Shown here piece by piece: positions 25,487-30,799 of a stretch of DNA of 45,382 bases. The stretch's first letter is position 1. Each line of letters starts with the position of its first letter. The notes beneath the pieces are model-generated. The model did no database searches. It saw only the letters and a program-made list of their open reading frames with translations, and was not told the DNA's origin. Made by a program: the position numbers and the translations under genes. The DNA is from Pseudolabrys sp. (GTDB lineage Bacteria; Pseudomonadota; Alphaproteobacteria; Rhizobiales; Xanthobacteraceae): assembly GCA_036391175.1 (NCBI GenBank), contig DASWAK010000563.1, positions 1-45,382 on the forward strand. The letters run 5' to 3'.

Positions 25487-25942
25487 TCAACTTCCGGTTG
25501 AACCAAAACCGTCGCCTCCGCGCGTGGTTTCATCAAGAGATGCGGCCTCGAATATGTGTCCGCGTACAACTGGAGTGATCACCAATTGAGCAACGCGCAT
25601 ACCCCGGGTGATCGTCACCGGTTCGCTTCCAAGGTTTACAAGCAGCACCTGGATCTCGCCCCGGTAGTCAGCATCGATGGTCCCTGGAGAATTGAGGACA
25701 GTTAGCCCGTGTCGGGCGGCGAGGCCGGAACGAGGCCGCACTTGAGCCTCTGTTTCCGCCGGTAGCGCGATCGCGATGCCGGTCGGAACGAGCGCGCGGC
25801 CACTGGGCGCGATCATGAGCGGAGCGGCCTCGGGTACAGCGGCGAGCAGATCGAGGCCCGCGGCGTGGGTGCTCTGATACGAAGGCAGCGGCAAATCTTT
25901 GCCGTGGGCAAGCCGCATCACTCGGACTTCAATATGGCTCAC
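25487..25942 (-). CDS. dut: dUTP diphosphatase
   Basis: [41 protein letters not shown]; GTGA overlap with coaBC. Confidence 0.97.
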
Positions 25943-27363
25943 CGATTGTCTCCCCTGAGGGCATCGGCAATGCGCGCGATGAGCATGCCGGCCACCTCGT
26001 CTTTACTCTGGGGCGGCCACGTTTCAAAACCAGACGCGCGCACGAGCGTAATGGTGTTGCGATCGCCACCCATCACGCCTGACTGCGGCGAAACATCGTT
26101 CGCCAGGATCCAGTCGCAGCGCTTGCTGACGAGTTTCATTTTGGCATTGGCGGTGACATTCTCGGTTTCGGCGGCGAACCCGATTACAAGTTTTGGCCGC
26201 TGGGTTTTTCGCTTGGCGATAGTGGCAAGAATGTCGGGATTCTCCACGAGCGAAAGCTCCGGCGTCGTCTTGCCTGTTTGCTTCTTGAGTTTCTGTTCTC
26301 CGGCATTGGCAACGCGCCAGTCGGCGACGGCCGCAGCGAAGATTGCAACATCCACTGGGAGCGCATGCTCGACTGCCTGGAGCATTTCGCGTGCAGTCTC
26401 GACTTTGATCACTTTGACACCGGACGGGTCAGGCACGGTTACCGGGCCACTCACAAGCATGACCTCAGCCCCTGCTGCGGCAGCCGCCGCCGCAATGGCG
26501 TGGCCCTGCTTGCCGGACGAGCGGTTGGCGATGTAACGCACCGGATCGATTGGCTCTCGCGTCGGACCGGAGGTGATAAGTATGCGCTTGCCTCGCAGCG
26601 GTTGCACTGCTTCCGATGCAAGGAGCCTCTCCGCTGCGGCGGCGATTTCCAGGGGCTCTGCCATCCGGCCGAAACCGCGCTCACTCGCCTCCGCCATCTC
26701 TCCTTCGTTGGGGCCGATGAGGACAACGCCATCGGCAATGAGCTGCGCCAAATTACGCTGCGTTGCCTTGTTGGCCCACATACGTGGATTCATTGCCGGC
26801 GCCAAAAGAATTTTCGCGGTTGTTGCCAACAGCACTGCGGTCGCGAGGTCATCGGCATGGCCGCCTGCGAGTTTCGCCATCAGGTCAGCCGTTGCCGGTG
26901 CGACCAGGATCAGGTCGGTCTCGCGTGCAAGCCGAATATGTCCAACATCGAATTCGCCAGCCAGATCGAACAGGTCGGTGAACACACGCTCGCCGACAAG
27001 CGCACTCGCCGATAGGGGGGTAACAAATTGCTCGGCGGCTTTCGTCAAGATGCAACGTACCCCGATGCCGCGCTCCTTCAATCGGCGAATGAGATCGAGG
27101 GATTTGTAGGCGGCGATGCCGCCCCCGATGATCAAGAGGACCCGTTTTGTGTCAGCCGCCACAGCAGGGCGAGAATTTCGCACGGACGCTCTTACCGGCA
27201 ACGTGGGTGGTTCGCGGTCAAGTGCTTCGCGTCCAGCGTCCTCGGCAGCCTCGCGCAGGATGGTGCGAACCTCGTCTTCAACGGAGCGACCGTTTCGCGC
27301 CGCGCGCAGGCGCAGCAGCTTTTTGAGCCGATCGTCGAGCTGGCGGACAGTCAGTGAGGCCAT
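25939..27363 (-). CDS. coaBC: Bifunctional phosphopantothenoylcysteine decarboxylase/phosphopantothenate-cysteine ligase with an N-terminal ribbon-helix-helix domain
   Basis: [60 protein letters not shown]; extra N-terminal [36 protein letters not shown]. Confidence 0.95.
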
Positions 27364-27395
27364 AAAATCCTCTTTAATTAAAGCATCTTAGGGCC

Positions 27396-27425
27396 GCATT
27401 GATTGCAATGCAATCAATGCGATCA
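27396..27425. promoter_or_regulatory. Perfect inverted repeat upstream of coaBC, candidate RHH operator
   Basis: GCATTGATTGCA-A-TGCAATCAATGC (12-bp arms), containing octamers TGATTGCA, TGCAATCA and TGCGATCA at 9-bp spacing. Confidence 0.65.
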
Positions 27426-27458: not shown

Positions 27459-27518
27459 TTGACCGCGCGGGCGCGGCCATGTATTTAACCATCTAGTTAT
27501 TTAAATAATGGGTTAAAT
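27459..27518 (+). promoter_or_regulatory. Promoter/operator of the ArsR-SRPBCC genes
   Basis: TTGACC-N17-TATTTA, overlapped by the AT-rich inverted repeat ATTTAACC(27483-27490)...GGTTAAAT(27511-27518). Confidence 0.5.
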
Positions 27519-27521
27519 TCG

Positions 27522-27872
27522 ATGACGACCGACCGTCTCAGCACAACCTTCGCAGCTCTCGCTGATCCGACGCGGCGCGCGATTCTTGCGCGGCTCGCTC
27601 TCGGTGAAACCTCCGTATTGAAGCTCGCCGAGCCGTTCGACATGAGTCTGCCGGCGGTTTCCAAGCATCTGAAAGTGCTCGAGCGCGCTGGTCTGATCAC
27701 CCGCAGCCGCGATGCCCAGATGCGGCCATGCCGGATCGAGGCTACCGCGCTCAAGGAAGCGGACGACTGGCTCGAGGAGTATCGCCGGCTCTGGGAAGAG
27801 CGTCTCGACCGGCTCGACGATTATCTGCGTGTTCTGCGAGCGAAGGAGAAAAAACGTGGCCGCAAAAAATAG
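27522..27872 (+). CDS. ArsR/SmtB family transcriptional regulator (SRPBCC-associated type)
   Basis: FAALADPTRRAIL, SLPAVSKHLKVLERAGLI, WEERLDRL. Confidence 0.92.
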   Translation: MTTDRLSTTFAALADPTRRAILARLALGETSVLKLAEPFDMSLPAVSKHLKVLERAGLITRSRDAQMRPCRIEATALKEADDWLEEYRRLWEERLDRLDDYLRVLRAKEKKRGRKK

Positions 27873-28353
27873 CATCGACCTTGAAACAGACCCGTGCTCA
27901 ATCATCGGCACGCGTGTATTCGACGCGCCGCGGGACCTGGTCTTTTCGGCGTGGACCGATCCCAGGCATCTGGCGCAATGGTGGGGTCCGAATGGGTTCA
28001 CCACCACCACACATTTATTCGAGTTTCGGGCGGGCGGTGTGTGGCGTTTTGTCATGCACGGACCAGACGGCCGCGACTATCAGAACCGCATAACCTTCGA
28101 CGAAATCATACCGCCGGAACGCATCGTCTATCGTCACAGCGGCGGTGATGATGTTGAGCCGGTGCAGTTCACACAGACTGTAACCTTCGAGAATCTTGGC
28201 AACAATCAGACCCGCATGACCTGGCGCGGCAAGTTCCCTTCGGCCGAAGAACGGGCCCGCGTCATCAGGGAATACGGCGCGGACAAGGGGCTGGTGCAGA
28301 CCATGGCACGGCTCGCGGATTACGCGGCATCACTTGCTGCGGAGCGTGCATAG
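27856..28353 (+). CDS. SRPBCC (Aha1/START-like) domain protein
   Basis: RVFDAPRDLVFSAWTDP, WWGPNGF, GGVWRFVMHGPDG; GTG at 27856 after AAGGAG. Confidence 0.9.
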   Translation: MAAKNSIDLETDPCSIIGTRVFDAPRDLVFSAWTDPRHLAQWWGPNGFTTTTHLFEFRAGGVWRFVMHGPDGRDYQNRITFDEIIPPERIVYRHSGGDDVEPVQFTQTVTFENLGNNQTRMTWRGKFPSAEERARVIREYGADKGLVQTMARLADYAASLAAERA

Positions 28354-28370
28354 ATGCCTGGGCCCGGATA

Positions 28371-28817
28371 TCAGGACAGCACCCGCAACGCCGCGCGCAG
28401 TTCGTCCGGGCCGCCACGCGGGATCAGCCCGTCGACTTCGGCGTGGGCCCGCGTCCACAACGGAAACGCCTTGCTGAGCAACGCGCGGCCTGCCGCTGTG
28501 ATTGTCAGACGGCGCCCACGTTTATCCTTCTTGTCGATCGAAACCTTCACCAGTCCGCGGCGTTCAAGTGGTTTGAGGGCCGCAGTGAGTGTGGTGCGGT
28601 CCATTGCAAGGAGTGCGGCAACGCTACTGATGTTCGGCGGTTCCGGCCGGTTCAGCGACATCAGCAGGGAGAACTGCCCATGCGTGAGATCGAGCGGACG
28701 GAAGACCTCGTCGAAGCGCCGTGCCAGCGCGCGCGCCGCCCGCTGCACATGCAGGCACAGGCAGGAGTCGCGCACCTGATGCGTCGCAGAGAGCGGTAAC
28801 TCGTGACGGGTTGACAT
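28371..28817 (-). CDS. MarR family transcriptional regulator
   Basis: CLCLHVQRAAR, LTHGQFSLL, MDRTTLTAALKPLERRGLV, DKRGRRLTITAAG. Confidence 0.92.
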   Translation of the reverse strand: MSTRHELPLSATHQVRDSCLCLHVQRAARALARRFDEVFRPLDLTHGQFSLLMSLNRPEPPNISSVAALLAMDRTTLTAALKPLERRGLVKVSIDKKDKRGRRLTITAAGRALLSKAFPLWTRAHAEVDGLIPRGGPDELRAALRVLS

Positions 28818-28822
28818 GTGAC

Positions 28823-28852
28823 ATAATATGTTGATATCAACGTATTTGTCAA
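28823..28852 (-). promoter_or_regulatory. marR promoter with a central palindromic operator
   Basis: Minus strand TTGACA(28852-28847)-N18-TATTAT(28828-28823), with the palindrome GTTGATATCAAC (28830-28841) in the spacer. Confidence 0.55.
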
Positions 28853-28878
28853 CAATGGGAACTCAAGGAGGACGAGTT

Positions 28879-29286
28879 ATGCAGGTGCAATCCTATTTGT
28901 TCTTCGATGGCCGGTGCGAAGAGGCGATCGCGTTCTACAAGAAGGCGCTCGGCGCCGAGGTCGACATGCTGATGCGCTGGAAAGACAGCCCGGACAAATC
29001 CATGTGCTCGCTTGGCAACGAGAACAAGGTCATGCATGCCTCGCTCAAGATCGGTGAAACCAGGGTTATGGTTTCGGATGGCCGCAATACCGGAAATCCG
29101 GAGTTCAAGGGCTTTGCGCTTTCGGTCAACGCGAAGGATGAAGCCGATGCGGATCGCCTTTTCAATTCGTTGTCCACGGATGGAAAAGTGATGATGCCGC
29201 TCGGCAAGACGTTCTTCTCGCCCCGTTTCGGCATGGCGACCGACAAGTTTGGCGTGAACTGGATGGTCATCGTCGAACCGAAGTGA
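28879..29286 (+). CDS. VOC family protein (PhnB/glyoxalase-like)
   Basis: YLFFDGRCEEAIAFY, KVMHASL, TFFSPRFGMATDKFGVNWMV; SD AAGGAGG before ATG 28879. Confidence 0.9.
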   Translation: MQVQSYLFFDGRCEEAIAFYKKALGAEVDMLMRWKDSPDKSMCSLGNENKVMHASLKIGETRVMVSDGRNTGNPEFKGFALSVNAKDEADADRLFNSLSTDGKVMMPLGKTFFSPRFGMATDKFGVNWMVIVEPK

Positions 29287-29310
29287 TCACGGCACACGCG
29301 AGGGCAGAGT

Positions 29311-29717
29311 ATGCAAACGACGGTCCAGGGGAATTCGACATCGAATGCGGCGCTCTGGGGTGGCGGCATCATGAGTGGTTTGGTGATCGCATTTATGCTG
29401 CTCGATGGCGGCATGAAACTGGTGCCGTTGGATGTCGTCATCTCGACGTCGAAGCAGATGGGTATCTCCGGCGACCTCGCGCGTCCGTTAGGAGTTATCG
29501 GCCTTTGCACCTTGCTCTACGCGATACCGCGGACGTCTGTGATCGGCGCAATTCTGCTGACCGGCTATCTGGGGAGTGCGATGCAAGCCATTTCAGACTC
29601 GGCGACCCGATTTTCACGCAAACCTCGTTTGGGTTCTATCTCGGCTTGCTGGTCTGGGGTGGACTATATCTGAGAGTTAGCCGGCTACGCGGCTTGATTT
29701 CCTTGCGCGAGCCCTGA
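29311..29717 (+). pseudogene. DoxX family membrane protein, frameshifted
   Basis: N-half ...LYAIPRTSVIGAILLTGYLGSA is in one frame and C-half ASHFRLGDP...YLGLLVWGGLYLR...LRGLI in another, consistent with a 1-nt deletion near 29582. Confidence 0.8.
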
Positions 29718-29762
29718 TCGCTTTCCGAATCCGAAATTCATCTCAAGCTAGCAGGTGTATCC

Positions 29763-30272
29763 ATGGCGACCATCACCGAAAGTTCAGAGTTCGTCATCTC
29801 GCGCGTGCTCGATGCGCCGCGCGATCTGGTGTGGAAGTGCTTCACCGCGCCGGAGCGTATGAAGCAGTGGTGGGGGCCAAAGGAATTCACGGTCATCGCT
29901 TCGAAAATGGATCTGCACGTGGGTGGGACCTACCACTATGGCATGAAGGCGCCCGACGGAACGCCAATGTGGGGAAAGTTCGTATTCCGCGAAATTGTCC
30001 CGCCCGAACGCCTCAATTTCATCAGCTCGTTTTCCGACGAGAAAGGCGGCACGACACGTCATCCCGGCCATATGTCATGGCCGCTCGAGATGCACTCGAT
30101 CTTCACCTTCGAGGAAATGCCCGGCGGCAAGACCAAATTCACCGTCCGCTGGACCACGCACAACGCAGCCGACGGAGAACAGAAAACCTTCGAAGCCGGG
30201 CGTGACAGCATGCGCATGGGCTGGACCGGCACAATGGAGCAGCTCGAAGCCTATCTCGCAAAAGCGCAGTAA
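29763..30272 (+). CDS. SRPBCC domain protein
   Basis: SRVLDAPRDLVWKCFT, WWGPK, GGTYHYGM, GWTGTMEQLEAYL. Confidence 0.9.
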   Translation: MATITESSEFVISRVLDAPRDLVWKCFTAPERMKQWWGPKEFTVIASKMDLHVGGTYHYGMKAPDGTPMWGKFVFREIVPPERLNFISSFSDEKGGTTRHPGHMSWPLEMHSIFTFEEMPGGKTKFTVRWTTHNAADGEQKTFEAGRDSMRMGWTGTMEQLEAYLAKAQ

Positions 30273-30292
30273 CCGCGCGTAAGGAGGACATC

Positions 30293-30799
30293 ATGGCAAT
30301 CATTGCCAAGCACAAGATCACGCCGTGCCTGTGGTTCGACACGCAAGCCGAAGAAGCGGCAAGATTCTATTGCTCGATCTTCGAGGATTCCAAAATCGGC
30401 AAGATTAGCCGCTACACCAAGGCCGGGCAGGATGTTCACCACAAGCCGCCGGGCTCGGTAATGGTCGTGGAATTCGAAATCGAGGGACAGACATTCACGG
30501 CCTTGAATGGCGGCCCGAATTTCAAATTCAACGAGGCGGTCTCATTCCAGGTGCGCTGCGAGACACAAACCGAAGTCGATTACTTCTGGGGCAAGCTCAC
30601 GCAAGGCGGGCAGGAGGGGCCCTGCGGCTGGCTGAAAGACAAATACGGTCTTTCCTGGCAAGTCGTACCGGCCGCGATACCGAAAATGATGACGGACCCG
30701 GACCCGGCCAAATCCGAGCGCGTGATGAACGCCTTCCTGAAAATGAAAAAACTCGACATTGCAGCGATCGAGCGCGCCTACGCGGGGCAGCCACAATGA
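30293..30799 (+). CDS. VOC family protein (PhnB-like; 3-demethylubiquinone-9 3-methyltransferase domain family)
   Basis: KITPCLWFDTQAEEAARFY, FTALNGGP, CGWLKDKYGLSWQVVP, MKKLDIA. Confidence 0.9.
   Translation: MAIIAKHKITPCLWFDTQAEEAARFYCSIFEDSKIGKISRYTKAGQDVHHKPPGSVMVVEFEIEGQTFTALNGGPNFKFNEAVSFQVRCETQTEVDYFWGKLTQGGQEGPCGWLKDKYGLSWQVVPAAIPKMMTDPDPAKSERVMNAFLKMKKLDIAAIERAYAGQPQ

Follow-up and report, generated by a model that had tools for sequence, protein, structure and literature searches.

A conserved array of three octamers upstream of an RHH-CoaBC fusion gene in Pseudolabrys, the predicted operator of its own FitA-like domain

The window, by which we mean the whole 45,382-nucleotide stretch of Pseudolabrys sp. 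DNA analyzed here, carries on its reverse strand a coaBC gene whose product begins with a ribbon-helix-helix (RHH) domain. The features that we discuss, in window coordinates, are the following.

25487 to 25942, reverse strand: dut (dUTPase), overlapping the coaBC stop by 4 nt
25939 to 27363, reverse strand: RHH-CoaBC fusion gene, 474 aa (CoaC flavoprotein, then CoaB)
27151 to 27243, reverse strand: variable Ala/Pro-rich linker, about residues 41-71, of low model confidence
27244 to 27360, reverse strand: FitA-like RHH domain at the CoaBC N-terminus, residues 2-40
27368 to 27374, reverse strand: likely ribosome-binding site AAGAGGA, from the sequence
27385 to 27390, reverse strand: predicted -10 box TAAGAT, 17 nt from the -35 box, from the TAnnnT offset in fused loci
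27395 to 27407 and 27409 to 27421, no strand: perfect 13-1-13 inverted repeat, comprising two octamers and flanks
27400 to 27425, reverse strand: three-octamer array, predicted operator for three RHH dimers, from sequence, conservation and co-occurrence
27408 to 27413, reverse strand: predicted RpoD -35 box TTGCAT, inside the middle octamer, placed by its fixed spacing to the -10 box
27483 to 27518, no strand: separate imperfect palindrome, 76% complementary, outside the RHH operator, which tracks arsR
27522 to 27872, forward strand: divergent ArsR-family regulator gene, the first of the cluster between coaBC and ubiB

The enzyme part is a standard assignment: the protein scores 401 bits against the TIGR00521 CoaBC equivalog (cut-off 219.7), has the PF02441 and PF04127 domains in the order CoaC, CoaB, and has as its top Foldseek match the CoaBC of M. 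smegmatis (PDB 6TGV). The downstream dut gene is likely co-transcribed with coaBC and hence under the same control. The head matches the FitA-like RHH family PF22513 over residues 2-40 (E-value 1.6e-15, 57.2 bits vs. a cut-off of 27); this antitoxin family is its only Pfam match, and the RHH-CoaBC gene is the single PF22513 match in this genome. Among 3098 matches to the RHH with lengths of 260-830 aa, all 120 that were listed are CoaBC proteins or CoaC fragments. The head is maintained. Seven of its residues (R7 in the ribbon, R20, S27, E29, E31, R33, L36) are invariant in 81/81 fused proteins, and pN/pS, computed over 253 genus pairs that are not independent of each other, is 0.22 for the RHH, 0.22 for CoaC, 0.27 for CoaB, and 0.82 for the linker. 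The RHH is thus under purifying selection as strong as that on CoaC, and the adjacent linker, which is Ala/Pro-rich and 20-53 residues long in the fused proteins of the family, is not. An AlphaFold monomer model gives the RHH helices a pLDDT of 88-94, models residues 2-7 as helix so that the monomer does not form the ribbon, and assigns low confidence to the linker.

The flap of CoaC (about residues 217-233, window about 26665-26715) reads GEMAE..GRM, without the Cys of the MACG motif. That Cys is absent in all 138 scored family loci, fused or not, as well as in three other families; it is kept in four outgroup loci, and the M. smegmatis protein (6TGV) lacks it in the alignment. A missing flap Cys as a trait of the fusion was rejected, given that unfused relatives lack it too, and we do not take it as loss of CoaBC function or membership.

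An earlier note on this DNA had described a perfect 12-1-12 inverted repeat 33-57 nt upstream of the coaBC ATG. The repeat and its position are real, and the arms turn out to be one base longer: it is a 13-1-13 repeat sitting 32-58 nt 5′ of the ATG (at 27363). Arms of 13 bp arise in 0/3000 dinucleotide shuffles of the 158-nt intergenic region, where the maximum is 12. Perfect arms of that length are by themselves not unique, and there are 7 places with arms of at least 13 and loops of up to 2. The note had also resolved the region into three octamers at 9-bp spacing, and there we read the same thing: on the forward strand, TGATTGCA at 27400-27407, TGCAATCA at 27409-27416 and TGCGATCA at 27418-27425. 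On the coaBC strand the array is TGATCGCA-t-TGATTGCA-t-TGCAATCA, with an octamer period of 9 bp. Each octamer is one base away from what we take to be the Neisseria FitA half-site, and the arrangement differs.

Defining a half-site as TGATWGCA or its reverse complement with at most 1 mismatch each, the coaBC array is the sole array of at least 3 half-sites in the 3.76-Mb genome (94.7% complete), and three Markov-simulated genomes contain none. The scan for further arrays, proposed in the earlier note, returned no other triple array in 3.76 Mb. A wider regulon was considered and rejected, as there is no second triple array, two-site arrays occur at chance level, and genomes of the genus have one array place each, with one exception. 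Half-sites are not avoided genome-wide either, once the 5-mer composition is modelled (49th percentile).

Within the genus, the coaBC match starts from residue 1 in all 24 genomes, and the triple array is present in 23/23 loci, the one in the window included, allowing up to 4 mismatches. A larger genus draw, allowing up to 3 mismatches, has an array match in 80/81 genomes, with 0 matches for a reversed control; each matching genome has one array place, the exception being G334 with two identical copies, and in 15 further genomes with a known coaBC position the array is just 5′ of coaBC. In three genus loci (L016, L018, L023) no more than 10-25 nt separate the end of the array from the start codon, so that a coaBC mRNA from such a promoter would be leaderless or nearly so.

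The region upstream of coaBC is shared with a second regulator gene, and the array could in principle be the operator of the divergent ArsR protein: it lies, after all, within the same 158 nt. But the two come apart across the genus. The arsR gene is absent from this position in 9 of the 23 genus loci, and the triple array is kept in all 9 (in one of them, L012, with only 135 nt upstream), so that the array, present in 23/23 loci, does not depend on arsR. As the earlier note had it, arsR has a different palindrome of its own, the one at 27483-27518, found in 14/14 genus loci with arsR and 0/9 without. We give an ArsR site at the array next to no chance. In the window (27522-30799), a cluster made up of the arsR gene and of SRPBCC (AHSA1), marR and VOC-family genes lies between coaBC and ubiB; ubiB is directly upstream in 56/82 fused family loci.

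Outside the genus, the same family offers natural contrasts, in that some coaBC genes have the RHH and some do not. The family search covered 160 genomes, 5 of them without a match, with 53 weaker matches beyond those listed. We took 140 of the 145 listed loci outside the genus (G105, G121, G154, G157, and G193 were left out): 82 are fused (one of them cut by a contig end), 6 have a separate fitA gene before coaBC, and 52 have no RHH. At least two half-sites are found within 130 nt upstream in 76 of the 82 fused genes vs. 1 of the 52 RHH-less coaBC genes (the one being L280). Among the 6 fused genes short of two sites within 130 nt, three have arrays 150-290 nt upstream; L203, L205, and L226 have one site only by the cut-off used. 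Where fitA is separate, the sites are before fitA (4/6) and never directly before coaBC (0/6). Half-site spacing varies by lineage, being mostly 9 bp, and also 13, 14, 22, and 23. In three loci (L183, L200, L209) an additional 130-250 nt separates the array from the start of coaBC; in L183 and L209 this extra stretch resembles a hairpin or repeat.

The idea that the motif should track the fusion is thus borne out by the counts, and the motif is neither absent from other RHH-coaBC genes nor equally common before unfused ones. The Fisher p of 5e-29 for fused vs. RHH-less genes overstates the case because kin are not independent. Counting independent pairs on supported branches of the CoaBC tree leaves 3 pairs (same direction 2.7, opposite 0.0, median p 0.25), and a second count 1-2 pairs. 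This phylogenetically independent contrast goes in the predicted direction, and it is underpowered and cannot reach significance.

Beyond the family, an exact GTDB-wide scan for the triple pattern finds at least 119 loci, and among the matches listed, 117/119 lie just before the start of a FitA-like RHH. In-frame fusions account for 88 of these 117 and stand-alone antitoxin-type genes for 11, and the other 18 are cut by the locus end or frameshifted; named records among the matches listed are mostly Pseudolabrys, Xanthobacteraceae, or uncultured Alphaproteobacteria, and some of the stand-alone genes come from records titled Candidatus Binatus, Acidobacteriaceae, and Hyphomonas. We also took a motif-blind sample, 29 loci from an order draw chosen by Pfam, of which 23 are stand-alone fitA-type genes away from coaBC. 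At least two half-sites are present in 13 of these 23 (shuffle mean 0.13, maximum 3) and fewer than two in the other 10. The exact inverted core appears in 4/151 order-draw genomes, once each and always before an RHH-coaBC; two of the four carriers belong to a second family, with a different RHH sequence. Because fused, stand-alone, and order-draw contexts share the motif, it follows the FitA-like RHH and not CoaBC, and these comparisons support its being a candidate general operator type of the FitA-like family.

There are hints at this level of what the protein might read. Ile occupies ribbon position 5 in two related stand-alone antitoxins (L321, L322) whose upstream regions have exact TGATAGCA/TGCTATCA sites, which we assume to be the FitA-type half-sites, and proteins with Thr5 have mostly TGATTGCA sites. 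A residue-base code is possible, on very few cases.

A motif shared with stand-alone genes also raises the question of who binds it. The array could be bound in trans by another factor, a stand-alone FitAB for instance, or the fused RHH could activate and not repress. Half-sites are indeed common to stand-alone fitA-type genes, the genome is 94.7% complete and might hide such a gene, and there are arrays without a neighboring RHH in L044 and L104. Against this, we found no second PF22513 gene in the genome, and the array covers the predicted -35 box and the spacer, a position that fits repression. We consider either variant very unlikely. The L044 and L104 loci are both gammaproteobacterial, one from a record titled Rouxiella badensis; the triple array, at 801-826, is flanked by an AraC-family gene on one side and a gene for a FAD-dependent oxidoreductase (dadA-like) on the other, and no RHH was found within 800 nt.

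What does the array overlap? The sequence predicts that it lies over the RpoD promoter of coaBC, with a start site near 27378. The prediction comes from comparison: in 47 of the 88 fused pattern matches a TAnnnT follows the TTGCAn of the middle octamer at exactly 17 nt, and 54 of the 88 have it at a spacer of 16-18 nt, vs. 4.6 in shuffles. A consensus promoter scan finds nothing at the array, and the predicted boxes score 7/12. The RpoD consensus of B. japonicum is given as TTG-N(16-18)-TATA in the available text of PMC4842269, and the TAnnnT spacing agrees with it. For the orthologue in that species, bll0759, the same study maps a start site 19 nt upstream of the ATG, with a peak of 42 in free-living cells and 9 in nodules (PMC4842269, supplement file 5), and its annotation places RpoD boxes, together with a TransTerm hairpin, in the gap of 56 nt that follows ubiB (supplement file 8). 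Projected with a 1-nt shift on a close homologue (L196), and so not read from the sequence of that strain itself, the -35, -10, and start of bll0759 all lie on four half-sites or at their edges, and the annotated terminator coincides with an inverted octamer pair.

That annotation leads to a different reading, in which the palindrome is an RNA hairpin (a terminator or a processing site) or mere promoter sequence. TransTerm does call a terminator at the equivalent B. japonicum site (813852-813869), hairpin folding of the strand is possible, and TTGCA matches a -35 box. A hairpin accounts poorly for the rest, however. No T-run follows the palindrome on either strand; the third octamer and the direct-repeat pairs add nothing to a stem; relatives keep their half-sites at 9, 13, 14, 22, or 23 bp, also in direct orientation; the element is upstream of the predicted start site; and RHH-less coaBC genes do without it. 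We regard this reading as highly improbable. Part of the half-site conservation does have other causes, which counts against the operator reading: TTGCA also serves as a -35 box, and in 16/56 scorable fused loci a half-site begins with the ubiB stop codon.

Our preferred reading is that the octamers are the operator of the fused RHH, and that RHH bound there would block the RpoD promoter, so that CoaBC would repress its own gene, and likely the coaBC-dut unit, in the manner of PutA. We put the probability of this at roughly 0.85. The earlier note had proposed the palindrome as the operator of the fused domain; tracking of the fusion and independence from arsR support the proposal, in which binding and repression are predictions. 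Mechanistically, each octamer would bind one RHH dimer, and the bound dimers would block the predicted RpoD promoter under the array. The enzyme oligomer would hold several RHH dimers on tethers of 20-53 residues and take over the bridging role that the PIN toxin has in FitAB. The outcome would be negative feedback on the enzyme level at a single target locus.

Alternatively, the RHH may bind the array in a loop without any useful role, both being relics of a toxin-antitoxin module that are kept because they contain the promoter and the start codon. The array does predate the fusion, with the same geometry before intact fitA-PIN pairs; 52/140 family loci have no RHH at all, so CoaBC can manage without; and on the tree fused genes are mixed among unfused ones. 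A useless loop would not, however, be expected to have an RHH held by selection equal to that on CoaC next to a relaxed linker, nor seven invariant residues in 81/81 proteins, nor an array kept in 80/81 genus genomes with the octamers outside the -35 box included. We find idle relics quite unlikely and keep autorepression as our working model.

Whatever its present role, the element appears to come from a toxin-antitoxin module. A separate fitA gene with an intact PIN gene or a PIN stub stands directly before coaBC in the 6 family loci already counted, in L078 and L087, and also in two other families (L026, L307, L311). In L026, L078, and L087, ubiB is upstream of fitA-coaBC. Toxin stubs are found in L243 and L087, and L274 has apparent fragments of an antitoxin tail and a toxin end behind two decayed half-sites. 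In the fused gene here no PIN toxin gene follows the RHH, which runs in frame into CoaC; a PIN gene accompanies the RHH only in unfused relatives. A GG-V/I/F-E/D/K motif, presumably marking the toxin-binding part of the antitoxin, is present in 0/76 linkers vs. 10/11 stand-alone antitoxin genes. Because loci with the order ubiB-operator-fitA-PIN-coaBC exist, some with decayed toxins, we infer that a fitAB-type cassette with its operator settled between ubiB and coaBC, and that the RHH became joined to CoaBC when toxin and antitoxin tail were lost. The operator was likely inherited with the cassette.

How many times this happened can be addressed in part with the tree. On a 48-row CoaBC tree, a single clade of all fused genes is rejected (AU p 6e-5), and one clade for the fusions of this family is neither shown nor rejected (AU p 0.32). 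The tests therefore leave room for two or more fusions, or for a single old one that was lost and re-inserted many times. The L311 locus (1230-2200) reads half-site pair, 69-aa RHH gene, second fitA, PIN-like gene, then coaBC; it may be a cassette re-inserted into a fusion, and with its two tandem RHH genes it could exemplify the route by loss and re-insertion. From a class draw, 20 of 23 CoaBC loci with open frames of at least 450 aa were taken, of which 18 were parsed. One of them, L339, has a CoaBC with an N-terminal extension (245-631) matching HTH_17 weakly (E-value 0.004, below the Pfam cut-off), and, by eye, TTTGTGA-like repeats upstream of its coaBC. The sequence is consistent with convergent recruitment of a head, and lends no support to the main claim of autorepression.

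A bolder extension, which we hold only tentatively and think more doubtful than probable, is that CoaBC is a metabolite-sensing transcription factor made from a domesticated antitoxin. In it the oligomer would replace the toxin as co-repressor, CoA thioesters, CTP, or the FMN state would alter the grip on the operator, and fusions would have arisen repeatedly (in two families of the order with FitA-type heads, and in a further alphaproteobacterial family with an unrelated head of helix-turn-helix-like type). If this is true, CoA synthesis would be under direct feedback at the level of transcription.

Annotation already has a name for the fusion, 'SbtC-like', and assigns to the domain neither a function nor an operator or origin. 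We found no literature on a coaBC operator or its regulation by an RHH within a coverage that leaves out most subscription journals, and the main text of a toxin-antitoxin survey (PMC2701414) has no pantothenate terms in the parts available. The present reading proposes that a core step of CoA synthesis has a transcriptional regulator with a defined operator, and it would give a function to a domain that annotation has carried unexplained. The lineage includes Bradyrhizobium, with a start site already mapped, which makes the idea directly testable. The loci also appear to preserve the stages from a selfish toxin-antitoxin module to a housekeeping regulator at one chromosomal junction: intact cassette, decayed toxin, fusion, and loss.

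Three known systems invite comparison. With FitAB, the VapBC-type pair of Neisseria gonorrhoeae (PDB 2H1O, 2BSQ), RHH-CoaBC shares the RHH family PF22513, although a direct match of the fused RHH to FitA is weak (E-value 0.03). Its array has three octamers at a 9-bp period, and the Neisseria FitA operator has, we assume, two widely spaced half-sites. In the text available on FitAB, FitA binds operator DNA through its RHH and FitB bridges FitA dimers (PMC3920265, PMC3378870). RHH-CoaBC differs in that it has no toxin gene and no antitoxin tail, its RHH is fused to a metabolic enzyme, and its ribbon has Thr in the middle position, in place of the Val of FitA (a Val whose role is described in the accessible part of PMC3325190). 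Since toxin and tail are absent, RHH-CoaBC is not a FitAB system. Mycobacterial CoaBC (PDB 6TGV) has the same enzyme fold; according to the available text of PMC7794376 it forms a dodecamer, which CoA and CoA thioesters inhibit. It has no DNA-binding head, and the control described there acts on enzyme activity. In its proposed way of working, RHH-CoaBC resembles the trifunctional PutA protein of E. coli and Salmonella, in which a bifunctional flavoenzyme carries an N-terminal RHH and acts as repressor of its own regulon, as the consulted part of PMC5293562 describes. RHH-CoaBC likewise has an N-terminal RHH on a flavoenzyme and conserved predicted sites over its own predicted promoter. An enzyme with a fused RHH repressor is a known design and so no new category. 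It differs from PutA in the enzyme, in appearing to have one target site per genome, and in a head that belongs to an antitoxin family, with toxin-antitoxin intermediates at the same locus.
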